A stretch of 64,000 bases of DNA, from NCBI GenBank assembly GCA_965198365.1, contig OZ240617.1, forward strand, positions 195,938 to 259,937, read 5' to 3'. Positions within the stretch are counted from its first letter, which is position 1; each line of letters opens with the position of its first letter. The translations under genes were made by a program, and so were the position numbers. This DNA is from Candidatus Aldehydirespiratoraceae bacterium (GTDB taxonomy: Bacteria; Actinomycetota; Acidimicrobiia; Acidimicrobiales; Aldehydirespiratoraceae). Shown here in pieces: positions 9,283-57,947 of this stretch. The notes below the pieces were generated by a model, which saw nothing but the letters and a program-made list of their open reading frames with translations, made no database searches and was not told the origin of the DNA.

Positions 9283-9361
9283 AGAACCCGCTGAACCACG
9301 CCACAACAACTAGCCGCGCGGATGTGTCTTGGGGCTTGCAGCGCAGTATGTTACGGACTTC

Positions 9362-10219
9362 ATGAGATACGCAGCTCCCACTACTGTGGATGAGGCTCTT
9401 GAACTGTTGCGCAGCGATCCCGACTCTCGGGTGTTCGCGGGTGCAACCGACCTCATCCCCCAAATCCGAGCCGGTCGCCCCGAGCCATCGGTACTAGTCG
9501 ACCTGAAACGCATAGAGCGACTCGTTGCAGTCAGTCACAACAACGGCACCTGGACTGTCGGTGCGGCCACGCCCACATCGGCACTCACCGCCAACGCCGA
9601 ATTCAGCTCCATGTTCCCGGGCCTCTCCGAAGCAAGCGGTTTGATCGGCTCTGACCAGATCCAGAACCGGTCAAGCTGGGGCGGCAACCTCTGCAACGCT
9701 TCACCCGCAGCAGATTCCGTGCCAGCGCTGATCGTCAACGACGCCACCGCCGTGATCGCCGGCGTCTCGGGCGAACGGACAGCCAATGTGGCCGATGTCG
9801 TAACCGGGCCAGGGCAGACATCGCTCGCCGATGGGGAGTTTGTCATCGAGTTCCTGCTTGACGACCCGCCCGCCAACAGCGGCGATGCCTACCTGAGGCT
9901 GATTCCCCGCACCGAAATGGACATCGCCGTAGTCGGCGCTGCGGTGCAACTGACCATGGACGGCGACAGTGTCGCATCAGCGAAAGTTGCTCTCGGCGCG
10001 GTGGCCCCGACCTTCGTGCGAGTGGCAGACGCTGAAGCTGCCCTTGTCGGCTCCAGCTTGGACGACGGCACCCTCGGAGCAGTCGCTGCCGCGGCCTCGG
10101 CTGCATGCGACCCCATCGACGACAAACGAGGCACGATCCAATACCGCAGGCAAGTAGCGGGCGTGCTGGCCAAAAGAGCCGCCGTGATAGCCGCACAACG
10201 AGCAAAAGGAGCGAGCTGA
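9362..10219 (+). CDS. molybdenum hydroxylase FAD-binding medium subunit (CoxM/CutM-like)
   Basis: Start at ATG 9362 (MRYAAPTTVDEAL). Has the FAGATDL motif and a C-terminal CO-dehydrogenase flavoprotein domain (IDDKRGTIQYRRQ). Confidence 0.8.
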   Translation: MRYAAPTTVDEALELLRSDPDSRVFAGATDLIPQIRAGRPEPSVLVDLKRIERLVAVSHNNGTWTVGAATPTSALTANAEFSSMFPGLSEASGLIGSDQIQNRSSWGGNLCNASPAADSVPALIVNDATAVIAGVSGERTANVADVVTGPGQTSLADGEFVIEFLLDDPPANSGDAYLRLIPRTEMDIAVVGAAVQLTMDGDSVASAKVALGAVAPTFVRVADAEAALVGSSLDDGTLGAVAAAASAACDPIDDKRGTIQYRRQVAGVLAKRAAVIAAQRAKGAS

Positions 10220-10701
10220 TGCCACGAACCCACGTGAACTGCACAGTCAACGGCGACGAAGTGGATTTCCTGTCGGCAGATGAGACCTCCCTTCTCAACG
10301 CTCTGCGTGACGAGTTGGGCCTCACCGGCGTAAAGGAGGGTTGCGGAACCGGCGACTGTGGTGCCTGCACAATCCTGGTTGACGGCAAGGTCAACTGCGC
10401 ATGTCTGATGTTCGCTCCCGAAGCCGAAGGGTCTGCGATCATCACTGTTGAAGGCATCGCCCAAGGCGACCAACTGCACCCGGTGCAACAGACCTTCCTC
10501 GAAGGAGCTGCTCTGCAATGCGGCGTTTGCACCCCAGGATTCATCGTGGCTGCCAAAGCGCTGCTTGACGAGAACTCCGACCCCACCGAAACCGAAATCC
10601 GCTACGCCCTAGCCGGCAACCTCTGCCGCTGCACCGGCTACGACAAAATCATCCGAGCCGTGCAAGAAGCGGCTGTTCAGGTAAATGGAGCCTCCAAGTG
10701 A
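10219..10701 (+). CDS. (2Fe-2S)-binding small subunit (CoxS/CutS-like)
   Basis: The ATGA overlap couples it to the upstream gene. Cysteine motifs CGTGDCGAC, CGVCTPG and CRCTGY are present. Confidence 0.85.
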   Translation: MPRTHVNCTVNGDEVDFLSADETSLLNALRDELGLTGVKEGCGTGDCGACTILVDGKVNCACLMFAPEAEGSAIITVEGIAQGDQLHPVQQTFLEGAALQCGVCTPGFIVAAKALLDENSDPTETEIRYALAGNLCRCTGYDKIIRAVQEAAVQVNGASK

Positions 10702-12929
10702 CTGTCACCGAGAACCCCCGAACCTACAAATACGTCGGCACCCGACCGGTGCGTCACGACGGACTCGACAAAGTAACCGGCAAAGCCCGGTTCGCTGCCG
10801 ACCTCGACATGACCGGGCAGCTCCGCGCCGCCCTAGTGCGCTCACCACACGCGCACGCCCGGATCGTCTCGATCGACACCAGCAAAGCCGAAGCGATGCC
10901 GGGAGTGAAGGCGGTAGTGACCGGTGCTGATTTTGCTGATCTCGACCCCACTCACCCCGAATTCGACATGGCAGTGAACCTGATGGCACGCGACGAGGTC
11001 CTGTACAACGGCCATGTTGTTGCCGCGGTGGCCGCGGTTACGACCGCCCAAGCCGCCGCTGCCGCTGACGCAGTCGAAGTCGACTACGACCCGCTGCCCG
11101 CAGTCCTGACCATCGACGAAGCCATCGCCGAAGGCGCTCCGATCGCCAACCCCACCACCCGCACCCTGTTCTCGGGCGACACCGAACCATCGAACCTGGC
11201 GTCAGTCAACGAATTCGGCCGCGGCGACGTGGAAGCCGGTTTCGCAGCAGCCGACATCATCCTCGAACGAGAATTCCGGACTGTGGCAGTGCACCAGGGG
11301 TATATCGAGCCCCACGCTTGCGTGGTCGACTGCGGCCAAGACGGCAAAGCCACGATATGGGCCTCCTCGCAGGGCCATTTCGCGGTGCGATCCAAGACCG
11401 CCGCGGCGCTTGGTTGGAGCACCGACCGGATCAAAGTCATCCCCGCCGAAATCGGTGGCGGGTTCGGCGGCAAGACCACCATCTATCTCGAACCAGTCGC
11501 GGTGTTGCTGTCACAGAAAGCCGCCCGCCCGGTGAAGCTGGTGATGTCACGCGAAGAAGTGCTACGGGCAACCGGCCCGGCACCCGCCACCAAGATCAAC
11601 GCGAAGATCGGTGCCACCGCGGACGGCGAAATCACCACCCTGCAATCCACGATGTACTTCGACAACGGGTCCACCAAAGGATTCAGCGCGCTCACCGGGG
11701 CGATGTCGGTCGCTTCCTACAAGCTGCCCAACCTTGAGCTACATGCCATCGGTACTATCACCAACACGGCACGCTCAGCCGCTTATCGGGCACCCTCGGC
11801 TCCCCAAGCAGCATTCGCCGTCGAAACGTTGATTGACGAACTCGCACAGCGCCTCAATATGGACCCGATCGTCATCCGCCTGCAGAACGCGGTAGTCGAA
11901 GGCGACGCCACCGCAATGGGTATGCCGCACCCCAAGATCGGTTTCGTTGAGACCCTCGAAGCGATCAAGAACTCTGACCACTACAACTCACCGGTTCCAG
12001 AAGGCGCCGGGCGAGGCGTGGCAACCGGTTTCTGGTTCAACATCGGGGAACAATCGTCAGCGACAGTCAACCTCAACGAAGACGGCACCGCCACAGTGAT
12101 CACCGGGAGCCCCGACATCGGCGGCAGCCGCGCTTCTATGGCGCTGATGGCAGCCGAAGAACTCGGCCTCGCCGTCGATCGCATAACCCCGATCATTGCC
12201 GACACCGAATCGGTTGGTTTCACCGATATCACCGAAGGCAGCCGCGCCACGTTCGCCACCGGCATGGCAGTGGTCAACGCCTGCCGTGACCTCATCGGAC
12301 AGTTGAAGCAACGAGCTGCCACCATCAAGAGCGTGGACGTCGAACAGGTCGAATGGGTCGACGGCGCGGCGGTCATTGAAGGGCAGGATCCGCTAACAAT
12401 CCCGGAGATCACCGCAATGGCCAAGAACACCGGTGGCCCGCTCACCGCTACCGCTTCGCTCAACGCGGCGGGGGCGGGCCCGTCGTTTGCGGTCCATGTC
12501 GCCGACGTAGCCGTTGACGAAGAAACCGGGGAAACCACAGTCCTGCGTTACACCGCCGCTCAAGACGCCGGCACTGCCATCCACCCCTCCTATGTGGAAG
12601 GTCAGATACAGGGTGGGTCGGTGCAAGGAATCGGCTGGGCGCTCAACGAGGAATACATCTACGACTCCAACGGAGTCATGGAAAACGCCAGCTTCCTCGA
12701 CTATCGGATGCCCGTGGCTTCTGATCTACCGATGATCGACGCGATCATCGTGGAGGTTCCCAACCCGAGCCACCCCTACGGCGTGCGCGGCGTCGGGGAA
12801 ACAGGCATCGTGCCCCCGATCCCAACCATCGCCAACGCCATCGCTGCAGCAACAGACGTGCGTATGACCTCGCTGCCGATGTCGCCTCCGAGGCTGCTGG
12901 CCGCGATCAACGAGAACGCCGGTAGCTAG
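10698..12929 (+). CDS. molybdopterin-binding large subunit of an aldehyde oxidase/xanthine dehydrogenase family enzyme
   Basis: 743 aa. The start overlaps the upstream stop. It has the typical a/b hammerhead domain and GGGFGGK motif. Confidence 0.85.
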   Translation: MTVTENPRTYKYVGTRPVRHDGLDKVTGKARFAADLDMTGQLRAALVRSPHAHARIVSIDTSKAEAMPGVKAVVTGADFADLDPTHPEFDMAVNLMARDEVLYNGHVVAAVAAVTTAQAAAAADAVEVDYDPLPAVLTIDEAIAEGAPIANPTTRTLFSGDTEPSNLASVNEFGRGDVEAGFAAADIILEREFRTVAVHQGYIEPHACVVDCGQDGKATIWASSQGHFAVRSKTAAALGWSTDRIKVIPAEIGGGFGGKTTIYLEPVAVLLSQKAARPVKLVMSREEVLRATGPAPATKINAKIGATADGEITTLQSTMYFDNGSTKGFSALTGAMSVASYKLPNLELHAIGTITNTARSAAYRAPSAPQAAFAVETLIDELAQRLNMDPIVIRLQNAVVEGDATAMGMPHPKIGFVETLEAIKNSDHYNSPVPEGAGRGVATGFWFNIGEQSSATVNLNEDGTATVITGSPDIGGSRASMALMAAEELGLAVDRITPIIADTESVGFTDITEGSRATFATGMAVVNACRDLIGQLKQRAATIKSVDVEQVEWVDGAAVIEGQDPLTIPEITAMAKNTGGPLTATASLNAAGAGPSFAVHVADVAVDEETGETTVLRYTAAQDAGTAIHPSYVEGQIQGGSVQGIGWALNEEYIYDSNGVMENASFLDYRMPVASDLPMIDAIIVEVPNPSHPYGVRGVGETGIVPPIPTIANAIAAATDVRMTSLPMSPPRLLAAINENAGS

Positions 12930-12934
12930 AACTA

Positions 12935-13180
12935 GTGGCCACTGTCCATCTTCAAGCCGATCATCGTCGCTTCACCGGCGGTGAAAAAGTCTTGCAGGTG
13001 GACGGCAACACGGTTGGCGAGCTGATTACAGAACTTGAGCGCCTTTACCCGGGCCTTGGGCCGTTGTTGACTGACGGTGCCAGCGTGGCCATCAACGGCG
13101 AACTGATCCCCAACGGGATCTTCGAGAAGGTCGATTCCTCCACCGAGGTCTACTTCGTAGCGCCTATATCGGGCGGTTGA
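12935..13180 (+). CDS. MoaD/ThiS family ubiquitin-like sulfur-carrier protein
   Basis: 81 aa ending in ...APISGG (C-terminal Gly-Gly). Beta-grasp-size protein lying 5 nt after the large-subunit gene. Confidence 0.65.
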   Translation: MATVHLQADHRRFTGGEKVLQVDGNTVGELITELERLYPGLGPLLTDGASVAINGELIPNGIFEKVDSSTEVYFVAPISGG

Positions 13181-13248
13181 CGTCAGCTGTTTGGGGCTGT
13201 TGTGGCGGCGGGGTTATAGTCGGCTGACCGTCTAATAAAGGGAGACCA

Positions 13249-13725
13249 ATGGCTCGCTTCCACGAGTTCGAAATGCTTTCGCTGGAAGGTGACCAAGTGG
13301 CGTTTTCGACGTTTGCCGACGCGGCTTGCCTGGTTGTCAACGTCGCTTCCGCTTGAGGCCTCACACGCCAGTACGCAGGTCTGCGTACGCTCCACAACGG
13401 AGACCACGGAGTCCAGGTGCTGGGCTTTCCGTGCAACCAGTTCGGTGGCCAGGAACCGGGCAGCGCTGAAGAGATCCGGGCTTTTGTCAACGACAACTAC
13501 AACATCAACTTTCCGATGTTCGCCAAGATCAACGTCAACGGTGATGACGCCGCCGATCTCTACAACTGGCTCAAGCGCGAGCACCCAGGCGACGATGCCT
13601 CGTCGGACATCCAATGGAATTTCGAAAAGTTCCTGGTCGACTCCGACGGACAGGTGGTTGCTCGCTTCCCACCCGAAGTCACCCCCGAAGAAATCACCGA
13701 ACAACTGCCCGCTCTGCTGAAATAA
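13249..13725 (+). CDS. glutathione peroxidase with in-frame TGA (13354-13356) at the catalytic position; probable selenocysteine
   Basis: ATG 13249 with AAGGGAG RBS. The product reads MARFHEFEMLSLEGDQVAFSTFADAACLVVNVASA-TGA-GLTRQYAGLRTLHNGDHGVQVLGFPCNQFGGQEPG...WNFEKFLV. The TGA replaces the peroxidatic Cys/Sec of the NVAS-x-[C/U]-G-x-T motif. The downstream ORF-track piece (13417..13725) is in the same frame. Confidence 0.75.
13371..13388 (+). promoter_or_regulatory. candidate bacterial SECIS apical hairpin
   Basis: Perfect hairpin GTACGCA-GGTC-TGCGTAC starting 14 nt after the TGA. Its core GCAGGTCTGC is identical to the apical stem-loop of the E. coli fdhF SECIS minihelix (GGUUGCAGGUCUGCACC). 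Confidence 0.65.
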
Positions 13726-13736
13726 AGGCACTCACT

Positions 13737-14213
13737 ATGACCCCCCAAGACCTCGTTGAGATCGAACAGATCAAACAACTCAAATACAAGTACGTCCGCC
13801 TGCTCGACCAACACTTGTTTGAAGAGATGCGTTCTGTGCTCACCGACGATGTGACCGTTCGCTACAGCGACGGCAAGTATTCGTACGATGGCGTCGATGC
13901 GGTGATCGGCTTCCTAACGGAATCGATGGGTTCAGAGAGCTTCCTGTCGAGCCACTCCTGCCATCATCCCGAAATCACCCTCAACGGCGACGGCACAGCC
14001 ACCGGGATCTGGAAACTCGAAGACCAGGTGGTCATCGGTGAACACGACCTGACGTTGCGCGGCGCGGCCTTCTACTACGACGAGTATGTGAAGACCGCTG
14101 CCGGTTGGCGGATCAAGACCACCGGTTACCGCCGGATCTTCGAAGAAATGCATCCCCGCTCCGCCATCGAAGGACTCAACCTCGTAGCCACCTGGTTCGG
14201 CGGCGAAACCTGA
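13737..14213 (+). CDS. SnoaL-like / NTF2 family protein
   Basis: Start at ATG 13737 (MTPQDLVEIEQIKQLKYKYVRLLD), the typical SnoaL_4 N-terminal helix. About 158 aa. Confidence 0.6.
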   Translation: MTPQDLVEIEQIKQLKYKYVRLLDQHLFEEMRSVLTDDVTVRYSDGKYSYDGVDAVIGFLTESMGSESFLSSHSCHHPEITLNGDGTATGIWKLEDQVVIGEHDLTLRGAAFYYDEYVKTAAGWRIKTTGYRRIFEEMHPRSAIEGLNLVATWFGGET

Positions 14214-22618: not shown

Positions 22619-23065
22619 TCAGGTCGGCGCACCAGTCATTGCAACCGGCTCGAGAACCACGACTGGAATCTCTCGATCAGTCTTGGACTCATAGGCGGCG
22701 TAATGCTTGAACTCGGAGACGGCCGCATTCCAGATCTCTCGTCGTTCGTCCCCTGAGGTGATCCGAGCGTTCATCTTCCTGGTGCCGTCTGCCGTACGCA
22801 CAGTGACCGCTGAGTTGTCGAGCAAATTCAGGAACCACGCCGGGTGGTTGTCGTTCCCACCAGCAGAGGCGATCAATGCCATCCGGTCGCCGTCCTGCCA
22901 CGGCGCAGTCAGCAAAACCGAACGGGGTAGACCGCTCTTGCGTCCGATGGTGGTGAGCTCAAGGACCGGCATCTTGGCCCCGGTCCAACCGATCTTCCCG
23001 CGGCTGACGGCTATTGCTGCGCCGTGAAAGCGATTCAAGGCTTTGAAGGCAAAATCGGAAGGCAT
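22619..23065 (-). CDS. deazaflavin (F420)-dependent nitroreductase family protein (Ddn/DUF385)
   Basis: Motifs LELTTIGRKSGLPRSVLL and GGNDNHPAWFLNL. Confidence 0.75.
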   Translation of the reverse strand: MPSDFAFKALNRFHGAAIAVSRGKIGWTGAKMPVLELTTIGRKSGLPRSVLLTAPWQDGDRMALIASAGGNDNHPAWFLNLLDNSAVTVRTADGTRKMNARITSGDERREIWNAAVSEFKHYAAYESKTDREIPVVVLEPVAMTGAPT

Positions 23066-24994: not shown

Positions 24995-25270
24995 GTGCAC
25001 GGTGATACACCGGGTGTTACACTCAAGCGCGTGCCAACTTCTCGACCTCGTCATCCAGTGACCGAAACGGACGACATCGCTGCGGTTCTTGACGAAGCGT
25101 CGCGGCGATGGTCAGGCACGCCCCGAGCCAAGCTCATTCGCCTCGTATTGCTGGATTGGGCTAGTGGAGGTCGTTCGCCGTCGGCGCGTGCTCAAGCGCG
25201 TGAGGATTTAACGGGTTCGCTTCCTGGTTCTTCGCACTTGTATCAACGTGCTGCAGACTGGCCCGAGTGA
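24995..25270 (+). CDS. putative antitoxin of the adjacent PIN toxin
   Basis: 91-aa ORF whose stop overlaps the PIN gene start (GTGA). No strong motif. Confidence 0.5.
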   Translation: MHGDTPGVTLKRVPTSRPRHPVTETDDIAAVLDEASRRWSGTPRAKLIRLVLLDWASGGRSPSARAQAREDLTGSLPGSSHLYQRAADWPE

Positions 25271-25653
25271 TTGTTGCCGACGCAAGCTGGGTCGTGGCGT
25301 TGCGTGATCCGAGTGATCGCCACCACCGTCGAGCGGTGGCTGTCAACTACGAGATCGGAAGCGAGAATTCGCTTCTGCACCCGGTGACCCTGGCTGAGTG
25401 CCTCGTTGCGCCTGCCCGACTAGGGGTCCTTGATGAAGCTTCCGCACGACTGCAAGCGGCATTCGACATCGACATCGTCGATCCCGGAGCTCCCTTGAGA
25501 TGGGCGAAGCTGCGAGCCGAGACCCCGCTGAGGCTTCCTGACGTCATCGTGCTTGACACCGCCTTGAACCGACATGCCCGAGCTGTTGCCACATTTGACG
25601 AGCAACTGCAGACCTGCTCAGCCGATTACGGTCTTGATGTCCTGGGAACTTGA
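25267..25653 (+). CDS. vapC: PIN-domain toxin (VapC family)
   Basis: N-terminal MIVADASWVVAL and a later acidic residue in LDTAL. 128 aa. Confidence 0.7.
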   Translation: MIVADASWVVALRDPSDRHHRRAVAVNYEIGSENSLLHPVTLAECLVAPARLGVLDEASARLQAAFDIDIVDPGAPLRWAKLRAETPLRLPDVIVLDTALNRHARAVATFDEQLQTCSADYGLDVLGT

Positions 25654-35167: not shown

Positions 35168-35590
35168 CTATCGCCCCGGTGCCACAGTGAGTCCGAGATG
35201 AGAGGCGGTGGCGATGAGATTCTGGTCGCCGCTGGCGAAGACTGTGTCCGCATCGGCGACTGTCTGCGCAGCGGCCAGGTGAACGGCGTCGTAGCCGCGT
35301 AGTTGGTGCTCTTCGGCCAAGTCGCCCGCAGATCGGACCAGTCGGTCGGTGATCCCGACGTGATCGACTTGGGCACTGAGGTCCTCAAGTAGCTCAACCG
35401 CAGAAGCAAGCCCTCGATGGGTCAGCCGCCCGAGTCGTTGAGCCCTAGCCAGCGCGGATCGGGCCTCGACGTGAAGAAGACGCACGCTGACGGCGCGTGT
35501 TGCTTCATTCCAGAGTCGCTCGCGGGAATCGGAGCTCGGCTCGCCGATGATCAGGGGAATGAACGCCGACGTATCGAAGTAGACGATCAC
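35168..35590 (-). CDS. vapC: PIN-domain toxin (VapC family)
   Basis: N-terminal MIVYFDTSAFIPL. 4-nt overlap with the upstream antitoxin gene. Confidence 0.75.
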   Translation of the reverse strand: MIVYFDTSAFIPLIIGEPSSDSRERLWNEATRAVSVRLLHVEARSALARAQRLGRLTHRGLASAVELLEDLSAQVDHVGITDRLVRSAGDLAEEHQLRGYDAVHLAAAQTVADADTVFASGDQNLIATASHLGLTVAPGR

Positions 35591-35844
35591 TGGCGCTGTT
35601 CGGCCACGAGGTCGCTCACTGTTCCCTTGCTCTTGACCTTGGAGTGGGACAGTCGTGTCTTCGCCGTCGGAGCCGAAATGACCAGCCCGTCGTCGATCAG
35701 CCGGTCGATGGTTCGGGCTTCATGAATGCCGACCAGAAGCGCCACTGCCTTCCCGTGATCGGTCACGGTGACCTCGGCCCCGGCTCGTACCGCGGTGAGG
35801 TAGCGACTCAAATTGTCCCTCAACTCTCGAACTCCAGCTTCCAT
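35587..35844 (-). CDS. Phd/YefM family antitoxin
   Basis: Reads MEAGVRELRDNLSRYLTAVRAGAEVTVTDHGKAVALLV. Start chosen at the internal ATG 35844. Confidence 0.7.
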   Translation of the reverse strand: MEAGVRELRDNLSRYLTAVRAGAEVTVTDHGKAVALLVGIHEARTIDRLIDDGLVISAPTAKTRLSHSKVKSKGTVSDLVAEQRQ

Positions 35845-35913
35845 AACAAAATTATAGCGCTTTTCCATTGGCTTTTCTAGCCATATTTTAGGTCGAGCTA
35901 CCGCGTGCGCCGT

Positions 35914-39851: not shown

Positions 39852-40090
39852 GGACCTCAATCAGGGGCGCTCGACGGTGTTGACGACACCACGTGCTGGA
39901 CCGCTTCCACCACCGCTCGGCCGCGGCCGCGTCGAACAGGTCCGGTGCCACCCCCCGACCGTGCGTGCTCGATCTGTGACCGGGCTTCGCTTCCTGGTCT
40001 GCTCCCTGGCCGTGCATACGAACCAGACCCTGAGGGTCAAGGCCACCGAGCATCTGCCCGGTCTCGTAGAGGTCGCAGAACCGTTGCGAG

Positions 40091-41257
40091 TCAGCCGGTT
40101 CCGTTGTTGTACCAGCCGCCGCCGATGAGGGTGCCGTTCACGTCGATGACCCACATGCGCATTGTCTCGGGGCCTGCGGCTGTGGCGGGGTTGTCCTCCG
40201 CGGTGATCCAGACACCGTCGGCGGTGGCGTTGCGCACTGCCGGCCCCAGCAGGTCCTCGACGTCGGTTCCGATGAGTGCGGGATCGAAGTGGGTGAGGAT
40301 CTCGCCGTCGGGGGCGGCGATGAACCCGGTGAAGTACCCGTCGAGGGTGTCGGTGCTGTTGTAGTACTCCACCGTCGGGATGAGGCCCGTGGAGATGCCC
40401 TGGGGGTCGTTGTAGAACTCCAGGATCGCTTCGAGGCCGCCTGTGCGGAAATGCTCGGCCGACTCCGAGATGAGCTGCGGCACGAACTGCTCGGTGTTGA
40501 TGTACCAGCCCGACGCGAACAGCAGCCCGTCATGGCGCACGACCCAGGCGTTCTTCAACTCGAACGCGCCCTCGTCGCCGAGAGTCCCGCCAGCGGGGTT
40601 CACATACACATAGGGCACCCAGCGGCCCGCCTCTGTGGCCGCCAGCATCTCAGGACCGAACCTGTAGCCGTTGGCGTCGGTGCCCACCCAGCCCTTGACG
40701 TCGAGGCCCCGCCGGTCGGGGTCGTAGTGGCCGATGACCTGGTCGTTCTCGTCGATGATGAACACGTACCACTGCCCGTCGATGCTCTCGGGGCGGTTGT
40801 AGTAGGCGACGGTGGCGTCGAGGCCCAAGGTCTCGTAGCGGCTGATGGCGCTGTCCACGAAGAACTTGGTGTACTCCGCGGGAGCGGACCTCGGCGGGAT
40901 CGACACCACCGCACCGCGCGCTATCCGCTCCGCCTCCTCAGCGGTGAGTCCCGACCCCTCGGCGGCCGCCAGCGCCGCCTCGATGACCTCCTCCACCTCG
41001 GCGCGGGACAGTCCCGTGTCGGGTTGGGGCAGCGCCGCCAGCGCCGCCTCGATGGCCTGTTCCGCCTCGGCGGCGGTGATCCCGGCCACCGGCTGCGGTG
41101 GTGCGGGAACAGCCTCCAACTCGGCGCGCACCATCTCTGCGACCTCGGGGCGGGACAACCCCGCTTCCCCGTCCCCGCCGCCGCATGCCACGGCCGCCAG
41201 GGGGACGAGGCAGGCCAGCGCCGCCAGGGTCCGCCGGATCGACTTCCGGTTCGTCAT
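40091..41257 (-). CDS. lipoprotein with two Cache/PAS-like extracytoplasmic modules
   Basis: Lipobox AAVAC. A helical Ala/Glu-rich linker with repeated LSRAEVEE/LSRPEVAE segments. Two YYN...DG.(W/Y).(V/T)(F/G)FI modules. Confidence 0.55.
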   Translation of the reverse strand: MTNRKSIRRTLAALACLVPLAAVACGGGDGEAGLSRPEVAEMVRAELEAVPAPPQPVAGITAAEAEQAIEAALAALPQPDTGLSRAEVEEVIEAALAAAEGSGLTAEEAERIARGAVVSIPPRSAPAEYTKFFVDSAISRYETLGLDATVAYYNRPESIDGQWYVFIIDENDQVIGHYDPDRRGLDVKGWVGTDANGYRFGPEMLAATEAGRWVPYVYVNPAGGTLGDEGAFELKNAWVVRHDGLLFASGWYINTEQFVPQLISESAEHFRTGGLEAILEFYNDPQGISTGLIPTVEYYNSTDTLDGYFTGFIAAPDGEILTHFDPALIGTDVEDLLGPAVRNATADGVWITAEDNPATAAGPETMRMWVIDVNGTLIGGGWYNNGTG

Positions 41258-41442
41258 GATCTTGATTCCTCCTGCTCAGATTTCGCGAGCCCGCCGATCG
41301 GGCTCGACCCACCGACTCGGGTCACACGGGACGGGACGCCGTGGGGCGTCTCGACGGGCTGTCGCGGGGCGTCAGCGACCATCGGGCACACCCGACGCCG
41401 CGAAGCCGTGGGAGCCGTGTCGGGATTCTCTTCGGCGGTCTC

Positions 41443-43041
41443 TCATAGGCCGACTATTTGACGCCAGTCAGCCCAGTCACAGTTCTGGGTTCGGTGCTCG
41501 ACGTCGATGGTGTATCCGTCCTCCCATCCTGAGTCTCCGGACTTCGGTATGTAGTTGTGGCCGTCGAGCAGGGTGACCTTGTAGTACCTGGCACGCCATT
41601 GCGCGCCGCACACGTTGTCCCGGGTCGTCGAGATGGAGAGTCCCCCGTTGTAATCCCTGTGCCCGAAGAACGTTGTCCCGGTGGTGGTCTCCGACACGAC
41701 CATCCCGCGTCCGTCGGCCTTGTCGGGGCCGCCGCCGAAGTAGTCGTACACGTCGAGTCTGTAGTTCACGGTCAAACCCGGGGGGTAGGACCCGGCGTGG
41801 TGGCGGGCAAGCCCGAATAGCAGGCCTTGTCCCTCGTCTGCGACCGCGGCGGCGTCGCTGATGCTGATCTCGATAGTCTGGTTCGTGGTCGAGAATTGCT
41901 TCGTCGCTGAGGTGACGGAGAAGTCGGGCGTCTCGTTGGTGGCTGTCCGGTTGTCGCCGGTCAGCGCGAACTGGATCTCGTAGGTCGTGCCGGCGGTCAG
42001 GCCGGTCAAGGCGACGGTGTGGCGGCTAGCAAACGTGAAGCGTTCGGAGGTGACCTCGCCGCCGCCGGTCAGGTTCGTGTACTTCGGGCTGGACCCCGTC
42101 GTCCAGGGGCTGTCGCCGACGGGCTGGTAGCGCCAGTGGAGTCTGGTCCTCGGTGTGGCCTCCCAGATGTTCAGGCTCACCTTCGCCTCGTTCATGAGGA
42201 CGCTGGAAGGGAAGATTCCCGTGATCACCCCGACTGGCTCGTCGTCCACCACGGTCACATCCACGCTGATGGCCTCCCCGTCGAAGCCGCCGCCGGTGGC
42301 GATGAAGTCGAGCGCCACCTTGTCGTTGTTCGCGTCCGCGTCCTGCGCGGCGCTGATCGAGCCGTTCTGGTGCGTCAACCAGTTCTCCGGCGTGAACACG
42401 AACCTTTCGGTGAAGTTGGACACGTCGGTGCCCGCGTCGCCGCTGACCGTCACCGTCACGTTCCCCGTCGGTTTCCCCGCGAACCCCCGGTCGGTGATTA
42501 TCGGTTTCAGCCTCACGCTGTATGACAGCGTCCCGCCCTCGTCCACCTTCATCGGATCCGGAATGACAAGCACACGCCCCGGGGGGTCATCTTCGACGGT
42601 CACCACATAGTTGGCGGACACCCCGCCATAGCCGCCATCGGCGGCACTGTGAATGAGCGTCACAACGTCGTCCCTCCTGTCCGCGTCGCTCGCGGCGGTG
42701 ACCGTCACCGTCTGAAACGTGTTGTAGTTCGACCTCGTGAACGTCAACGACTCTGTGCTCAAGGTCAGATCGGTGCCCTCGTGGCCGCTGATCGTCACCG
42801 TCACGTCCGCGGTCGGCTGCGTCGCCAGCTTCACCATGTAAGTCGCTTGGCTTTGCTCATCCATGGTCAACGCCGTCGGCGTGATTATCAGGTCGGCGGT
42901 CTGCGCCTGGGCCGGATGGCCGCCCGCGACGAGCAATGCCCCGATCAGCGTCGGCAGGACCGCCAGGGCGACGAACCGGCGGCGGACGCGTCCGCGCGTG
43001 GGACGGACGGGGATTCCAGGGGCGGATCCGGTAGTCGTCAT
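41443..43041 (-). CDS. secreted multi-beta-sandwich surface protein (Tat-type signal)
   Basis: Start taken at ATG 43041, preceded by GAGGAAG (43048-43054). Twin-arginine signal RGRVRRRFVALAV...AQA. Contains repeated VTVT(I/V)SG..GTD modules and an FN3-like module. Confidence 0.7.
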   Translation of the reverse strand: MTTTGSAPGIPVRPTRGRVRRRFVALAVLPTLIGALLVAGGHPAQAQTADLIITPTALTMDEQSQATYMVKLATQPTADVTVTISGHEGTDLTLSTESLTFTRSNYNTFQTVTVTAASDADRRDDVVTLIHSAADGGYGGVSANYVVTVEDDPPGRVLVIPDPMKVDEGGTLSYSVRLKPIITDRGFAGKPTGNVTVTVSGDAGTDVSNFTERFVFTPENWLTHQNGSISAAQDADANNDKVALDFIATGGGFDGEAISVDVTVVDDEPVGVITGIFPSSVLMNEAKVSLNIWEATPRTRLHWRYQPVGDSPWTTGSSPKYTNLTGGGEVTSERFTFASRHTVALTGLTAGTTYEIQFALTGDNRTATNETPDFSVTSATKQFSTTNQTIEISISDAAAVADEGQGLLFGLARHHAGSYPPGLTVNYRLDVYDYFGGGPDKADGRGMVVSETTTGTTFFGHRDYNGGLSISTTRDNVCGAQWRARYYKVTLLDGHNYIPKSGDSGWEDGYTIDVEHRTQNCDWADWRQIVGL

Positions 43042-43063
43042 GGCCGGCTTCCTCGGAATCTGC

Positions 43064-43076
43064 GGGGGGGGGGGGG
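43064..43076. repeat. homopolymer G13 (C13 on the coding strand of the 41443..43041 gene)
   Basis: Counted directly and cross-checked against the ORF-track translation APPPPQ. Lies 9 nt upstream of the RBS and 22 nt upstream of the ATG at 43041. Confidence 0.95.
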
Positions 43077-43350
43077 CAAGCCGCTTGGGGCAGGTTCTGA
43101 GGGCGGGCGTTCTCAAGGGCGGAACCGGCGCTGGTCATGGCGTGCCTCCTGGGCATCTAGAGGAAGGAAACGAACGATGCCGTCGCGGACGGCCGGGTGC
43201 GTCGGTGAAACACCGACTACAACGCACCCTATCGTATCAGACATGAAAGAAACATGGAATAGACATGAAAGAAGCATAAATCCCATACGTATAATATTCT
43301 GACGAGACGGACAGGGCAGCCTGTCCTCGATTTAGTCCGTTCTGTTTGCA

Positions 43351-44103
43351 ATGAAACTCCGTCTGCCTTCCTCACGTCTCGTTACGCGGTCGGTGCTGTT
43401 GATCGTGCTCGCCGGCGCCACTGCGTTCTTCCGTCTCGGCCTGACCGATGCCTCCGACAGCGTCACGGTGAGCCATGACGGGTTTCAGCTGACGTGTCCC
43501 GGGCTGATCGAGGAGGGCTCGACCCTGACGTGCATGCTCACGAACACCGCGGCCACCGAGGCGGACTGGCCGGTCGTCGGGATCCTGCACCGGTCGGACG
43601 ACTCGAACAGGGCGCTGGTCCGGGGCTCGCCCCTCGATGTCGAGTTGAGCGCTCCCACTCCCGAAGCCACTATCGAGGGTGGCGTGTGGTGGATCGGTCC
43701 CGACCTTGTCGGCTACTCGTTCTTCGACTGGTCGGGAACGGCGGCCGCGGCACCCGGCGCGACCACGACCACATCCGGCGCGACCACGACCACAACCGGC
43801 GCGACCACGACCACAACCGGCGGGGCCACGAATTCGCGCGACGTCGTCATCAGCATCGTGGATGACGACGATCATGAGAGCGAGGAGGTGTTCTACGTCT
43901 CCCTGGCGTCCGACGGCAGCAGGAACGTGGGAGTTCTGTACAACAACCGGCAGAGGGTCCGGGTCTCAGACGGCGACAGCGAGAGCAGCGACGCGTCCCT
44001 GAGCGACCTCCGCATCTTCGCCGGAGGGGGGGGGGGGGGTAGAGGAGAAGACGCTCACGTTCTCATCGACCGTTCTGTCGTACCAGGTCACGGTCGACTA
44101 TGA
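43351..44103 (+). CDS. N-terminal segment of the giant surface protein (signal/TM segment + Calx-beta-like module + start of a cadherin-like beta-sandwich domain); frame broken at the G14 tract
   Basis: N-terminal hydrophobic segment SVLLIVLAGATAFF. The module TCPGLIEEGSTLTCMLTNT...FDWSG...VFYVSLAS is repeated in the next ORF. The ORF runs through G14 and then stops 64 nt later. Confidence 0.75.
   Translation: MKLRLPSSRLVTRSVLLIVLAGATAFFRLGLTDASDSVTVSHDGFQLTCPGLIEEGSTLTCMLTNTAATEADWPVVGILHRSDDSNRALVRGSPLDVELSAPTPEATIEGGVWWIGPDLVGYSFFDWSGTAAAAPGATTTTSGATTTTTGATTTTTGGATNSRDVVISIVDDDDHESEEVFYVSLASDGSRNVGVLYNNRQRVRVSDGDSESSDASLSDLRIFAGGGGGGRGEDAHVLIDRSVVPGHGRL
44026..44039. repeat. homopolymer G14 at the junction of ORFs 43351..44103 and 44114..52282
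   Basis: Counted directly and checked against the translation FAGGGGGGR. The downstream frame is open from 44003, so G13 (or G16) would fuse both ORFs. Confidence 0.95.
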
Positions 44104-44113
44104 CGTCACAGAG

Positions 44114-52278
<8,165 letters not shown>

Positions 52279-52282
<4 letters not shown>

Positions 52283-52418
52283 CCGAGTCATACCCGCGCC
52301 CGACGGCGGGGGGCTGACCGAGTCATACCCGCGCCCGACGGCGGGGGACTGACCGTGTCATGCCCGCGCCCGACGGCTGGAGACTGACCGAGTCATACCC
52401 GCGCCCGACGGCGGGAGA
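52279..52418. repeat. 4 x 35-bp tandem repeat (CTGACCGAGTCATACCCGCGCCCGACGGCGGGGGG), starting on the stop codon of the giant gene
   Basis: Copies begin at 52279, 52314, 52349 and 52384, with a few substitutions. Each contains CCCGC-N8-GCGGG. The array lies between convergent genes. Confidence 0.9.
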
Positions 52419-52466: not shown

Positions 52467-54233
52467 TCACTGGTAGACCGGCTCCATGCCGGTGTAGAGG
52501 TCCTCGGGCTGGAAGATCCTGATGTAGTCCAGTTCGAGTCTGGTGCGGATGGTGTCGTAGCTGCTGGTGGCGAATCCCGATGCCCGCACTACGAGTTCCA
52601 TGGGCCGGTGGGCTATGGCGATGAGTTCCAGCAGCGAGTCGGTGTCGTCTGGATCCAAGTATGTGAAGTACTTGTCCCGGTCAGACCCGTAGTAAGTCAA
52701 CTTTTGTCTGCTGATCGTGTACTCGCCGGTAGTGGAGATCGATATCGGGCTGTAGTTGACTTCAACCTTGTTCTTGGGTCTAACTTCCAGGCTGTCATCA
52801 TGGCCGTCGATCTTCTGAAAGCTCCGATAGCCGCCCGGGGTCCACTCCAGGCCCATAGTCACAGTTATCTTTCCATCGCCGTAGCAGCCAGCATGGTTCA
52901 GCGCAATCTGAAATGATGTACCGGTACCACAATACACGTTCCGCCTTGATGAACTAGTCGGCACTAACGGGGCGTCGTATTTCTGCTTAGGACCATTGAT
53001 ATACGCATGCGAGATGGTCTTTCGGGACCAGGGGGTATGCTCGAAGATGTTTATTTCCATGCTGGCTAATCTGGCGATATCTTCGTAACTGTCCACGACC
53101 ACATTGTACTCGCCATGTAGGTTCTCCAAGCTTTTGACAGGGTTCCCGGCAGAGAAGGCATAGTTCTGGTAGAAACTGTTGAACGCCGTGTTGACGGTGA
53201 ACTTGACCTCGAGATATCCGTACTTGAAGGAGAACTTGCCGTAGGTCGACATTGATCCGCGACAGGAGTGAACCCTCGTCATGTAGTATCGGCCGTCTCG
53301 TATGTTCTGGCAGGGCTCGCCAAGGCTGTCCGTGTCGTTGCACGGGTTGGGATCGTGGTTCCAGAGGTCGCTGTTGAGAGTCGCCATACCGTTGTCCAGG
53401 CCTGCCTTGCATCCGTCCTCGATGGGCGTGCCGTCGAACTCCTCGGCAAAGACCAGGCTGTAGTTCTCCGTGGGCTGAACGAGGTTGGGCAGGCTGTCGC
53501 GCAGGCTCGACGGGGTCTCGGGCCGCTCGGACGGCGGGAGTTCGTCCATGAAGAGACATGTGAACCTGTCCCGGTCCGCATCGGGATAGTCGCCGCACTC
53601 TGAGGCCTGCTCCGACGGGCCGACCACAACGTCGCGATACACCATCAGATCGGAAGCGGAGTCCTCGGCCGAAATTTCTGCCGTTCTGACCGGATGCCCG
53701 TTGACGTAATAGTAGGGCCTGTCGTTGTCATAATCGTCCAAGAACACGTACAACAGGCCGCTGTCCTCTCGCACTCCGAGCAACATGTCAAGGCACACGG
53801 GCTCCTTGTTGCGCCCGCAGAATTGGTGCGTGTCTCCCGACACACCCTCGATCGCGAATGTCACACCGTCTGCATCGCCGTCCCGCGCCTGCACACTCAC
53901 CCTGCCGAAGTACCGGTGGCCGAGCACCAGATCATCATTGTGATCGTCCCAATCCGGACCTTGGAGCGTATTGACACCCCCGTCACAATTGGCGAAGTCG
54001 TGATCGCAGAACAGGAAGATCGTCGGATAGAGGGAGAACTCCCGAGACGTGAACGCCAGGGCGGGGCCGCCGGTGTCGATGGCAGCCACGACCGGGCCGA
54101 GGGTATCGTCCGGGCCGACAGCCCCGGAGGCACTCTCGCTGTCCGTCGCTACGGCACCGAACGTCGTGGCGGCCAGCAGCGCGACGCCCCCCGCCAAGCC
54201 CCCCGCCAGTCGTCGCAGTCGGGCGGAGCTCAT
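52467..54233 (-). CDS. secreted protein with C-terminal GH16-fold (concanavalin-like) domain; catalytic motif reads EINIFE
   Basis: Signal peptide. FAEEFDGTP...LNSDLW, GKFSFKYGYLEVKF and a terminal LDYIRIFQP all parallel the GH16 landmarks FxDEFDG, YGrxEaR and DYVRVY. The ExDxxE position is EINIFE (53040-53057). Confidence 0.65.
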   Translation of the reverse strand: MSSARLRRLAGGLAGGVALLAATTFGAVATDSESASGAVGPDDTLGPVVAAIDTGGPALAFTSREFSLYPTIFLFCDHDFANCDGGVNTLQGPDWDDHNDDLVLGHRYFGRVSVQARDGDADGVTFAIEGVSGDTHQFCGRNKEPVCLDMLLGVREDSGLLYVFLDDYDNDRPYYYVNGHPVRTAEISAEDSASDLMVYRDVVVGPSEQASECGDYPDADRDRFTCLFMDELPPSERPETPSSLRDSLPNLVQPTENYSLVFAEEFDGTPIEDGCKAGLDNGMATLNSDLWNHDPNPCNDTDSLGEPCQNIRDGRYYMTRVHSCRGSMSTYGKFSFKYGYLEVKFTVNTAFNSFYQNYAFSAGNPVKSLENLHGEYNVVVDSYEDIARLASMEINIFEHTPWSRKTISHAYINGPKQKYDAPLVPTSSSRRNVYCGTGTSFQIALNHAGCYGDGKITVTMGLEWTPGGYRSFQKIDGHDDSLEVRPKNKVEVNYSPISISTTGEYTISRQKLTYYGSDRDKYFTYLDPDDTDSLLELIAIAHRPMELVVRASGFATSSYDTIRTRLELDYIRIFQPEDLYTGMEPVYQ

Positions 54234-56002
54234 TGGTAGACGGGCTCCATGCCCGCGTAGCGGTCAACGGGCTGGAATACCCTGATGTAGTCAATCTTGA
54301 GTTTGGTCTGGATTCGGTCGCTGGATGGATTCCCATGAGCGTGAAGCTCAAACTCCAATGGGATGTGAGAGATTCCGATCTTCTCTAAGATCGAATCTGG
54401 ATCGCCGTCGGTTTGGAACTCAAAGAATTGCCCACGTTGGCTGTCATTTATGGCTCGCGCAGTGGAACTGAACGACACTTTTCCGTCCATCGAAACTGTG
54501 CTGGGATATCGTTCTATCGAGATCTTGTCCATGGGTACAACCTTAAGACTGTCGTGGACCCCGTCGACTTTGAAAAAGGTGCGATATCCTCGAGGCGTCC
54601 ACTCGATACCTCTTGTAATGGTCTCGGTAGGATTGCATTCAGCCGCTGGCAACGCTCTGTCGAAGAATGGATCTATGTTTGCTCGGTGATTACGGCATAA
54701 CTGGAGCCATTTGCTACTTCGCATCGGCTCGGTTGTCGTGAACGCCGAATCACCATACGGGTTGATCCATTGATGAGATACCGACCTGCGATGTGAGGGC
54801 AAGAACTCGAACAGATTGATGACAGTTCCGAGACGCTTAGTGATGGCTTCATAGCTGTCGATGGACACGTTGTAGCGGCGATACTTGTGCTTGAGAAGCA
54901 CGAGAGGATCGGCAATGGACAACGCCATATTCAGCCAACTAGCAGTGTTGTGGTCCTTCATATCAGCGGTGTACTTTACTTCAATGTATCCGTACTTGAA
55001 CCTTACTTTGCCGTCGGTGACTATCTCGGGAGAGCACCTGGTGGTGACTGTCATATAGTAGCTGCCGTCTTCGACGTTCGCGCAGGGCACGCCGTTACGG
55101 TCTACATTGTCGCAAGGGTTCGTGTCAAAGTTCCAGACGTCTCCGCTGAGGGTCACCATGCCGTCGTCAATACCGGGCTTGCATCCATCCTCCACCGGCG
55201 TCCCGTCGAATTCTTCCGCGAAGACCAGGCGATAATTTGCCTTGGGCTGGACGAGATTCGGCAACGCGTTGATCATGTCCACGGAAGCACTCGGAGGATC
55301 TGAAGGCAGTGCCTCCGCCAAGAACAGACACGTGTATCTGTCTGCGTTCCGGCTGGGATAATTGGCGCAATCAGGTGACCGTTCTGATGGTCCTACCGAC
55401 ACCTCACGATATACCTTCAGATCCTGATCAGGAACTTCAACGGACAGCTCAACTCTCTGTCTTGGAAAATCGTTGACATAGTGATGCCGATGGAATCCCC
55501 AATCGAGTCCGGGACCCTCCCGAACGATGTCGGTGGTGATGGAGGCCTCGTCAGCAAACAGGAACAGAGCGCCGCTGTCTCCAACTATGCCGACTTCAAC
55601 ATGGGCACACTGGGCTGGATCCCCGTCGCACCACTGATACATCGACTTGTCAGGCAGATCTTCGATCGCGTACCTGAGGCTGTCGACCTCGTTATCTCGC
55701 TCGCGAACCTCCACTCTGTCGAAATACCGGCCGCCGCCGATGTTGTGGTCGGTGTCGTTCCTGCCAGACCAGTCGGCGCCGCGGTAGAGAAACACCTGCG
55801 GCGGCAGGAAGAAGCGGCGGTCAGACGCGAAGCTCAAGGCAGGCTCCCCCTGTCCGATGACCGAAGCTGACGAGGATGCGGCCACCGAAGCGACATCGAG
55901 ACGCGCCACCACGCCTACTACCGTCGCAAGCACAGCGCCAACTGCCAGCAGTCTTGGAAGCCCAGCCACGAACGCCCTCCCTCGGCGAAGATCACAACCC
56001 AC
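54230..56002 (-). CDS. paralog of 52467..54233; GH16-fold domain with VINLFE at the catalytic motif position
   Basis: Same architecture and the same C-terminus (...GMEPVYQ). The stop overlaps the start of the downstream paralog. The motif position reads VINLFE (54806-54823). Confidence 0.65.
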   Translation of the reverse strand: MGCDLRRGRAFVAGLPRLLAVGAVLATVVGVVARLDVASVAASSSASVIGQGEPALSFASDRRFFLPPQVFLYRGADWSGRNDTDHNIGGGRYFDRVEVRERDNEVDSLRYAIEDLPDKSMYQWCDGDPAQCAHVEVGIVGDSGALFLFADEASITTDIVREGPGLDWGFHRHHYVNDFPRQRVELSVEVPDQDLKVYREVSVGPSERSPDCANYPSRNADRYTCLFLAEALPSDPPSASVDMINALPNLVQPKANYRLVFAEEFDGTPVEDGCKPGIDDGMVTLSGDVWNFDTNPCDNVDRNGVPCANVEDGSYYMTVTTRCSPEIVTDGKVRFKYGYIEVKYTADMKDHNTASWLNMALSIADPLVLLKHKYRRYNVSIDSYEAITKRLGTVINLFEFLPSHRRSVSHQWINPYGDSAFTTTEPMRSSKWLQLCRNHRANIDPFFDRALPAAECNPTETITRGIEWTPRGYRTFFKVDGVHDSLKVVPMDKISIERYPSTVSMDGKVSFSSTARAINDSQRGQFFEFQTDGDPDSILEKIGISHIPLEFELHAHGNPSSDRIQTKLKIDYIRVFQPVDRYAGMEPVYQ

Positions 56003-56486: not shown

Positions 56487-57947
56487 ATGAGAGGAAATAA
56501 CATGAGAAGCAGAAAGACTCGGATTCTGGGTTTACTCTCAGCGGTGGTACTGATGGCTGTTGTAATATCAGCGACGTCGCTCACCGCGTCAGCAGTCAGC
56601 AATAGTGACTTTACGTTGCGGTGCAGGCCGGGGACGGACAATTCCGAAGCAGAGCCCACCTACGTCACCGAGGGGGATGACTTCGACCTTCAGGTGAAGT
56701 GGTTAAACCGACGAGGCACCACCGGAAAATGGCGTGTCTCATGGGATACCAATGATGACAATCCTGTGTCGGCTAGACATAGCGTCGACTATAATCGTAG
56801 ACACGATCAACAGCAGAGGAAGTCGGTCCTCTATTCCACCATCAACCACACTTTCCAGACGATCGAGGATGACCTGTTCGAGGGACCTGAGACCTTCGAA
56901 GCAGGGATGTATTGGGCGCGCAAGGAGGGCACCTCAAACTCAACGTCGCTGTACTGCGCTGTAGAAATCAGAGACGACGATCCACTAAAGGTGACCTATA
57001 CCAGGCTTCTCAATACGCCTAACCAGGGGTCCTCCTTCAAGGCAGGGGAAACTCTCAAGATAGGCACATATTTCAACGGGTCGGTCCAAGCCAGCGATGG
57101 CTCATACCTCGTATTGAAGTTTAAAGACGCAGACGACAACGTCCGATATAGGAGAGCCTACTACAGCGATAGCGCGACTAGATCCGTAGTAGGTAGAACT
57201 ACCTGGGCGGTCTTTACGTACACGGTGCAACCTGGCGACTTGAACTCATTAGACATCGCCGTGAATTCGGGATTCCGCGGTGACCCCATTTACGGTGTCT
57301 ACACCAACGGAACGGTCTCGGATGTACAGCCCCAAGAACAAGGTAACGTCGACCCATTAAAGGTGTGGGCCTCAGATGCGGTGGGTAACGGAGTTTTTGC
57401 CATCGACGGTTTGACCGGTCATCCCAGGATTACCGGCATAGAGGTCATCACTTCGCCCGAAGCGCCAGATGCCCCATGGGAAGTCGGAGAAGACAGCAGC
57501 TCTGGGGACTACGAAGGTAGCGAATATTTCGATAGCTGGCACGGCCAAACCTATCGGGCAGGTGACGAGATCGAATTCCGGGTGGCTTTCGATCACCCCG
57601 TAGCTGTTTCGGGGGATGTTGGGATCAGCCTTAGCTTGAACGGCTGGCGGGGCGCCAATTACAAGAACTCCTCCGGACACATACCTTTCACCGTCCACGC
57701 GAATTACAGGGGGAGAACATACTCCAGCCACTTGGTGTTCGGATACACGGTGAAGGCTTCCGATCTGGCCAGCGACGGGTTCAAAGTCCAGAATGGAGGA
57801 ATTTCCGACGATGGGCTCACAATATACGGATTCCACGGGTCGGGAAGGATCTTCAATACCTCTGGCAAAGCTGTGAACCCAGGTTTGCGGGCACGACGTC
57901 ATCCGATAGGGTGGACGGGCGTCCGTACGTCGAAAATATCTCGATAA
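56487..57947 (+). CDS. secreted repeat surface protein, N-terminal part (probably one gene with 57911..61096)
   Basis: Signal peptide MRSRKTRILGLLSAVVLMAVVISATSLTASA. Contains modules of the type P.I..I.(I/V)(T/I)S.P....Y..G(D/E).I...V.F, also present in the next ORF. Confidence 0.7.
   Translation: MRGNNMRSRKTRILGLLSAVVLMAVVISATSLTASAVSNSDFTLRCRPGTDNSEAEPTYVTEGDDFDLQVKWLNRRGTTGKWRVSWDTNDDNPVSARHSVDYNRRHDQQQRKSVLYSTINHTFQTIEDDLFEGPETFEAGMYWARKEGTSNSTSLYCAVEIRDDDPLKVTYTRLLNTPNQGSSFKAGETLKIGTYFNGSVQASDGSYLVLKFKDADDNVRYRRAYYSDSATRSVVGRTTWAVFTYTVQPGDLNSLDIAVNSGFRGDPIYGVYTNGTVSDVQPQEQGNVDPLKVWASDAVGNGVFAIDGLTGHPRITGIEVITSPEAPDAPWEVGEDSSSGDYEGSEYFDSWHGQTYRAGDEIEFRVAFDHPVAVSGDVGISLSLNGWRGANYKNSSGHIPFTVHANYRGRTYSSHLVFGYTVKASDLASDGFKVQNGGISDDGLTIYGFHGSGRIFNTSGKAVNPGLRARRHPIGWTGVRTSKISR

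Follow-up and report, generated by a model that had tools for sequence, protein, structure and literature searches.

The 64-kb window analysed here, the whole stretch of DNA taken from contig OZ240617.1 of an uncultured member of the Acidimicrobiia, carries a glutathione peroxidase (GPx) gene in which the codon for the peroxidatic residue is UGA and is followed closely by a small hairpin resembling the selenocysteine insertion sequence (SECIS) of Escherichia coli fdhF. On comparative grounds we consider it highly probable (approximately 0.88) that this UGA, codon 36 of the gene, is decoded as selenocysteine (Sec) via the downstream hairpin. A selenoprotein GPx with an fdhF-like SECIS had been proposed by a first-pass annotation of the window, and this proposal is supported by 26 homologs with TGA at the same codon, by hairpin codons that are frozen at their synonymous positions, and by the ratio of nonsynonymous to synonymous substitution rates (dN/dS) on either side of the TGA. 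The features concerned are listed below; open reading frame is abbreviated as ORF and bacterial SECIS as bSECIS.

13238-13244 (+): Shine-Dalgarno-like AAGGGAG, 4 nt 5' of the ATG, read from the sequence
13249-13725 (+): predicted Sec-GPx coding sequence, ATG 13249-13251 to TAA 13723-13725, 158 codons with U as codon 36
13354-13356 (+): in-frame UGA, proposed Sec at the peroxidatic residue, context VVNVASA*GLT
13371-13388 (+): candidate bSECIS hairpin GTACGCA-GGTC-TGCGTAC, with 5' arm 13371-13377, loop GGUC 13378-13381 and 3' arm 13382-13388
13417-13725 (+): 102-amino-acid 'fragment' ORF with GTG start, taken from the ORF listing and called instead of the full gene

A GPx of 158 codons had been predicted on condition that the TGA is read through. 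The frame is indeed open from this codon to the TAA, and the conceptual protein, scored with cysteine (Cys) put in for the stop, matched PF00255 (GSHPx) with 126.1 bits (cut-off 27), covering profile positions 1-108 of 108. The ATG start and its AAGGGAG ribosome-binding site are both present where they had been placed, and in 10 of 11 diverged homologs with TGA the start codon likewise lies 35 codons 5' of the TGA (34 in the eleventh). The assignment of the TGA to the peroxidatic residue was borne out by 137 homologs that have TGC or TGT in the same column. Together with Q64, W123 and N124, U36 (TGA) forms the catalytic tetrad, and the peroxidatic Sec/Cys, Gln, Trp and Asn columns are invariant among 160 aligned sequences. 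The splitting of the gene by ORF callers was also found as anticipated: the ORF list of the window contains the 102-amino-acid piece, and public gene calls for relatives are fragmentary as well, consisting of a 106-amino-acid fragment or of a pair of 35 and 102 amino acids.

Conservation of the UGA codon and of the downstream hairpin

GPx loci were collected by scanning one genome per species as well as metagenomes, which yielded 160 further loci (designated by the prefix L), and additional look-ups were added. The catalytic codon is TGA in 26 distinct homologs (TGA forms) and TGC or TGT in 137 (Cys forms). The TGA forms are 50-97% identical to the window and originate from metagenome-assembled genomes (MAGs) of Ilumatobacteraceae, Acidimicrobiales and Acidimicrobiaceae, from MAGs of Gammaproteobacteria, and from metagenomes. 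Those obtained from the species-genome and metagenome scans share about 50-64% protein identity with the window and have an intact frame before as well as after the TGA. Three near-identical syntenic relatives from independent assemblies (L001-L003, 97% nucleotide identity) keep both the TGA and the hairpin; the 97%-identical relatives are found in ENA ERZ25073888 contig_3 and ERZ28763718 ctg125523.

The perfect hairpin reported to begin 14 nt past the TGA was recovered at 13371-13388 with 7 bp, and upon folding of the region it sits within the minimum-free-energy (MFE) structure. Its codons double as coding sequence for Q-Y-A-G-L-R-T. The published bSECIS consensus comprises a loop of 3-9 nt, an upper stem of 4-16 bp, a UGA-to-loop distance of 16-37 nt and an MFE <= -7.5 kcal/mol (PMC13188914, Fig. 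2A). The window hairpin agrees with this consensus on every count, having a loop of 4 nt (GGUC) with GG at its first two positions, a feature without exception among 25 of 25 aligned sequences; an upper stem of 7 bp; a UGA-to-loop distance of 21 nt (13357-13377), equal in all TGA forms; and a folding energy of -8.5 kcal/mol for the 18-nt hairpin alone, or -13.2 kcal/mol for a 44-nt stretch. Compared with shuffled sequences, the hairpin on its own gave z = -3.55 and the 57-nt region z = -1.13. The validated fdhF SECIS gave z = -1.40 in the same shuffle test, and because this validated element behaves alike, we did not take the weak score of the 57-nt region as evidence against function. As thermodynamics alone is weak, the case rests on comparative evidence. 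A second exact occurrence of the hairpin core, GCAGGTCTGC, at 25608-25617 (-) was rejected as coincidental: the stretch runs antisense to a PIN-domain gene and directly adjoins the TGA of that gene, no coding frame goes with it, and the number of GCAGGTCTGC occurrences in the window is within shuffle expectation.

Conservation of the hairpin among TGA orthologs was a point on which the first-pass annotation had beforehand let its reading stand or fall. The hairpin was found in 25 of 25 aligned sequences at the same position, with 98.9% of cells paired. Its 18-mer is identical in 22 of the 26 TGA forms; L009 carries a compensatory G:C to A:U change plus a U-G wobble, L004 one U-G wobble, and L092 and L169 one lower-stem mismatch each. 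The hairpin is absent from every Cys form outside the clade that unites the Sec forms (Sec clade; the tree is described below). Third-position identity over codons +5 to +10 is 1.00 in TGA forms versus 0.48-0.71 in Cys forms, while codons outside the hairpin, taken as controls, show normal variation in TGA forms. Codon choice was then compared between sequences of both classes having the same amino acid:

Gly at +8, codon GGT: 26 of 26 TGA forms, 17 of 131 Cys forms (Fisher p = 1e-18)
Ala at +7, codon GCA: 25 of 25 TGA forms, 8 of 47 Cys forms (Fisher p = 9e-13)
Leu at +9, codon CTG: 26 of 26 TGA forms, 57 of 138 Cys forms (Fisher p = 3e-9)

Three homologs lack the TGA and bear on what is being conserved. 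L165 (3464-3510; ENA ERZ27313181 k141_150515), with 73% amino acid identity, has TGT (Cys) and an intact hairpin (GTACGCAGGTCTGCGTGC); it seems to have changed from Sec to Cys recently, leaving a fossil SECIS, and such cases have been described earlier (PMC1794560). L084 (4153-4200) is a Cys form (TGC) that falls within the Sec clade. It continues to encode QYAGLRA, with the hairpin destroyed at synonymous positions (CAATACGCGGGACTGCGCGCG), and looks like an older conversion of the same kind; a hairpin-breaking synonymous sequence such as that of L084, CAATACGCGGGACTGCGC, still encodes QYAGLR. Since L084 keeps the peptide without the hairpin, the peptide does not explain the nucleotide conservation, and it is the RNA that is conserved. 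L164 (1589-1635; ENA ERZ23499074 scaffold_14248; protein P0001), present on a single 2.3-kb contig, combines a perfect hairpin with CGA (Arg) at the catalytic codon, which differs from TGA by one nucleotide; a mistake in sequencing or assembly, or a dead allele, may account for it.

Both parts of the gene are under purifying selection. Identities at the three codon positions 5' of the TGA are 0.70/0.77/0.55 in TGA forms and 0.70/0.76/0.52 in Cys forms, and thus indistinguishable. Relaxed constraint, named in advance as a sign that would speak against a selenoprotein, was not observed: between the window and its syntenic orthologs L166, L168 and L169 (dS 0.4-1.0), dN/dS ranged from 0.02 to 0.28 on both sides of the TGA, as follows.

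L169: N-terminal 35 codons 0.019; C-terminal codons 0.15
L166: N-terminal 35 codons 0.077; C-terminal codons 0.28
L168: N-terminal 35 codons 0.15; C-terminal codons 0.25

These values bear directly on the possibility that the gene is a nonsense-mutated Cys-GPx pseudogene, or that the TGA is a sequencing error, with the hairpin being coincidental. That the 57-nt region folds no better than shuffled sequences and that a second GCAGGTCTGC occurs by chance would both agree with it. However, the TGA is common to 26 distinct sequences from independent assemblies, dN/dS is low on both sides and upstream codon periodicity is that of intact Cys forms, and the frozen synonymous sites are confined to the hairpin codons of TGA forms. 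With a negligible probability left to it, this explanation is in effect refuted by the comparative evidence. Were UGA reassigned to Trp or Gly throughout the genome (translation tables 4 and 25), an apparent in-frame stop would result as well, although nothing specific favors this reading. TGA is the commonest stop codon in the window, where it closes 19 of the 34 genes with Pfam support; it is also the terminator of several GPx homologs of the TGA form; and a Trp or Gly residue in place of the peroxidatic one would abolish enzyme activity. Stop-codon usage refutes a genome-wide reassignment, whose likelihood is practically nil, and given that TGA is the normal stop of these genes, recoding at codon 36 is site-specific.

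Resemblance to the fdhF element and points against selenocysteine decoding

The fdhF SECIS had been quoted in the first-pass annotation. Of 5426 complete E. coli genomes, 5419 contain the quoted 44-mer, TGACACGGCCCATCGGTTGCAGGTCTGCACCAATCGGTCGGTAA, with 100% identity inside the annotated fdhF gene, and the core said to be common to fdhF and the window, GCAGGTCTGC, is present in both. At the RNA level the two elements have the same 10-nt apical core, GCAGGUCUGC, in which a GGUC loop is closed by a GCA/UGC stem. Both lie inside the coding region directly 3' of the UGA, and GGU is a codon in both, while the host gene is a molybdopterin formate dehydrogenase in the one case and a GPx in the other. 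In E. coli the bulged U of the fdhF minihelix is a SelB contact.

Several observations weigh against Sec decoding of codon 36, beginning with two differences between these elements. The 5' arm of fdhF contains an unpaired U, whereas the window stem consists of 7 uninterrupted bp without a bulged U. In addition, the loop is 18 nt from the UGA in fdhF and 21 nt in the window, 3 nt further, and the GGT loop codon accordingly lies at +8 versus +7, one codon further from the UGA as had been noted initially; this spacing differs from fdhF, yet is still within the general bSECIS range. With the apical 10 nt identical, the bulged U absent and the spacing longer, the hairpin is therefore an fdhF-type-like element and not a copy of fdhF. 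Covariation is thin, amounting to one compensatory pair by pair count over the aligned TGA forms, because the hairpin is nearly invariant; we therefore relied on synonymous-site conservation instead. Comparison with Rfam gave no match to a SECIS family at the gathering threshold, nor at E<=10 on positions 13300-13450, with just two chance hits. Since Rfam models represent bacterial SECIS elements poorly (Actinomarina preprint, bioRxiv 10.64898/2026.04.03.716425), this null result is uninformative.

The remaining points concern the decoding machinery and other selenoproteins. None of selA, selB, selD and the tRNA-Sec gene was found in the window. Searching the window and 169 related loci (1.07 Mb) by tblastn with E. 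coli SelA, SelB and SelD resulted in zero matches, indicating that the Sec machinery is not linked to the GPx gene, and ARAGORN detected no tRNA-Sec in the window and 13 TGA loci. The full Sec machinery has been documented for a different order of Acidimicrobiia (bioRxiv 10.64898/2026.04.03.716425), and the trait thus exists in the class. Scanning the window for TGA-interrupted ORFs with SECIS-like hairpins returned 62 noisy candidates, 0 of which had coding support, and no second selenoprotein was found.

The failure to see the Sec machinery in the window and the fetched loci would be expected if the gene were stranded, i.e. if the lineage once decoded UGA as Sec and the genome recently lost the machinery, leaving a relic without function that has so far neither decayed nor changed to Cys. 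The Sec-to-Cys conversion in the close relative L165 likewise shows that the trait, or the pressure that maintains it, can go. A stranded gene should, however, display relaxed constraint or a rapid change of TGA to TGY, and neither is seen in the lineage: TGA and hairpin are kept in the three near-identical independent assemblies L001-L003, and also in L166, L168 and L169, with dN/dS well below 1. We regard a stranded gene as improbable.

Peroxidase type and the resolving cysteine

In 2-Cys GPx enzymes and BtuE, a resolving Cys is expected approximately 46 residues past the peroxidatic residue, and the window protein is without one. The corresponding column is that of V80 in the window (codon 80, 13486-13488), which we take to be the position of Cys82 of yeast Gpx3, based on a hand alignment. 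Cys occupies this column in 134 of the 137 Cys forms and in 0 of 23 Sec forms, the latter having Ala (18) or Val (5). The three Cys forms lacking the resolving Cys have a Cys three residues earlier instead. One Ilumatobacteraceae MAG (L042; JBEBGL010000007.1) contains two tandem GPx genes (at 3106 and 3573) approximately 470 nt apart, the first of which is a Cys form with a Cys that precedes the usual resolving position by three residues and the second a Sec form with the SECIS hairpin. Thioredoxin recycles Cys-GPx enzymes that have a resolving Cys, while Sec-GPx enzymes are typically not recycled in this way (PMC10298544).

The window protein scored 155 bits against the BtuE equivalog NF007900 (cut-off 270) and 126 bits against TIGR02540 (cut-off 207), both below the cut-off, and NCBIfam holds no Sec-GPx-specific model. 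The best matches among solved structures are small GPx4-type enzymes and yeast Hyr1.

In a neighbor-joining distance tree calculated with the hairpin residues masked, all 23 Sec forms fall into one clade of 27 that spans both phyla. The distribution of the Sec clade across Acidimicrobiia and Gammaproteobacteria is compatible with horizontal spread. Within the aligned sequences, the gain of Sec in this clade correlates with loss of the 2-Cys mechanism, which suggests that acquisition of Sec goes with a change of the catalytic cycle. In the papers on bacterial Sec-GPx that we consulted, we found no statement of a clade-wide loss of the resolving Cys.

The following mechanism is proposed. UGA codon 36 would be decoded by Sec-tRNA(Sec), brought by the elongation factor SelB, and the SECIS hairpin starting 14 nt 3' of the UGA would tether SelB to the mRNA; SelB binding and actual selenium incorporation are steps that we infer. 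The product would be a small GPx4-like peroxidase that reduces hydroperoxides through the selenol of U36, which Q64, W123 and N124 would activate. Because the Sec clade is without a resolving Cys, the oxidized selenium would probably be recycled directly by an external thiol, in a 1-Sec catalytic cycle. The reductant may be a low-molecular-weight thiol or a redoxin that would attack the selenenic acid, and not an internal disulfide.

The comparative data as such reveal joint selection of the UGA and the hairpin, not the residue inserted. They would therefore also accommodate SECIS-dependent recoding of the UGA to another residue, for instance to Cys carried by a variant tRNA and brought in by a SelB-like factor, giving a Cys-GPx product. 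Against such recoding, a one-nucleotide change to TGY provides Cys at no cost, as in L165; the loss of the resolving Cys in the Sec clade points to a different active-site chemistry; and the apical motif is the same as in a bona fide Sec-inserting SECIS. We judge insertion of a residue other than Sec to be slightly less probable still than a stranded gene.

Beyond the decoding of UGA as Sec in the window, we tentatively put forward a broader scenario, which we hold to be possible but doubtful. One GPx clade may have swapped Cys for Sec and dropped the resolving Cys, resulting in a '1-Sec' enzyme that would be recycled by an external thiol instead of by an internal disulfide with thioredoxin and would constitute a bacterial counterpart of the animal GPx4-type peroxidases. 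The gene may then have moved between phyla as a self-contained unit, because its near-invariant minihelix of the E. coli SelB-binding type would suit diverse SelB proteins.

Genomic surroundings, annotation and known relatives

The GPx gene lies in a conserved block (window 9329-14213) that comprises xanthine-dehydrogenase/CO-dehydrogenase-like FAD, 2Fe-2S and molybdopterin subunits, an 81-amino-acid ThiS-family protein, the Sec-GPx and a SnoaL_4 protein; the order of this block is kept in L001, L166, L168 and L169. Named matches of the glutaminyl-tRNA synthetase (GlnRS) encoded in the window are all from uncultured Acidimicrobiales, Acidimicrobiaceae and Actinomycetota, at <=81% identity. At 22619-23065 (-) the window encodes an F420H2-dependent quinone reductase family protein (PF04075), consistent with actinobacterial-type F420 metabolism in the organism.

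Two PIN-domain toxin modules are present. The one at 24995-25653 (+) consists of a PIN gene (25267-25653) preceded by a 91-amino-acid ORF without Pfam match, and the one at 35168-35868 (-) of a PIN gene (35168-35590) preceded by a Phd/YefM antitoxin gene (35587-35868). The region 40000-52300 has a guanine-plus-cytosine (GC) content of 0.65-0.72, compared with approximately 0.60 elsewhere in the window, and is possibly a compositionally distinct island. An ORF of 2722 amino acids at 44114-52282, with a GC content of 0.90 at third codon positions (GC3), contains cadherin-like, bacterial Ig, sulfatase, Spondin_N, fibronectin type III and weak SLH domains and probably encodes a giant surface protein. 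Four large ORFs of 486-590 amino acids are without Pfam match (52467-54233 (-), 54230-56002 (-), 56487-57947 (+) and 41443-43116 (-)); three of the four lie in or beside a low-GC stretch (0.55-0.57, 54-58 kb).

The Sec clade is systematically mis-annotated in public protein databases. Among the best 120 matches of a protein search, approximately 40 were 'glutathione peroxidase' fragments of 101-124 amino acids that start just past the TGA or the hairpin. Relatives with the highest identity (74-94%) are represented by fragments covering the C-terminal 64-76% of the protein, and relatives with 50-60% identity by full-length entries. As a consequence of this mis-annotation, oxidative-stress capacity and selenium use would be under-counted in abundant uncultured Acidimicrobiia and Gammaproteobacteria. 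The gene also offers a textbook case of dual coding, in that six codons are synonymously frozen solely when the upstream codon is UGA, and the fossil and eroded SECIS elements of Cys forms offer natural 'before and after' controls of Sec-to-Cys conversion.

Bacterial Sec-GPx is a recognized selenoprotein family with a UxxT motif (PMC1088965, PMC1794560, PMC13188914). Its first members came to light in Treponema denticola and in sequence data from the Sargasso Sea (PMC1794560, PMC1088965), and it has been listed as 'predicted with high confidence' (PMC13188914, PMC9312934). As both bacterial Sec-GPx and bacterial SECIS elements are well established, the window gene does not constitute a new category. 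Three points are modestly new: two phyla share an fdhF-like minihelix that hardly varies, the resolving Cys has been lost throughout the clade, and mis-annotation is extensive.

Of these family members, the Gpx of T. denticola (WP_010957027.1) and five GPx selenoproteins from the Sargasso Sea share PF00255 and the U-x-x-T motif with the window protein (U-G-L-T). According to the published descriptions, their UGA is likewise followed immediately by a small stem-loop whose apical loop contains G. The host of the former is a spirochaete, that of the window gene an uncultured member of the Acidimicrobiia.

The closest Cys homologs are the 2-Cys GPx-type thioredoxin peroxidases (E. coli BtuE; yeast Gpx3/Hyr1, PDB 3cmi), with the same fold and tetrad and approximately 50% identity. 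These have Cys in place of Sec and retain the resolving Cys, whereas the window protein has V80. The animal GPx4-type selenoperoxidases (human GPX4; Schistosoma mansoni GPx, PDB 2v1m) are among the best structure matches (E ~1e-36 to 1e-38) and are likewise small enzymes with a peroxidatic Sec, the same tetrad and no resolving Cys, the position being Val in both 2v1m and the window. In animals, however, the SECIS resides in the 3' untranslated region and is served by SBP2 and eEFSec, while the candidate SECIS of the window lies within the coding region, in the bacterial manner.

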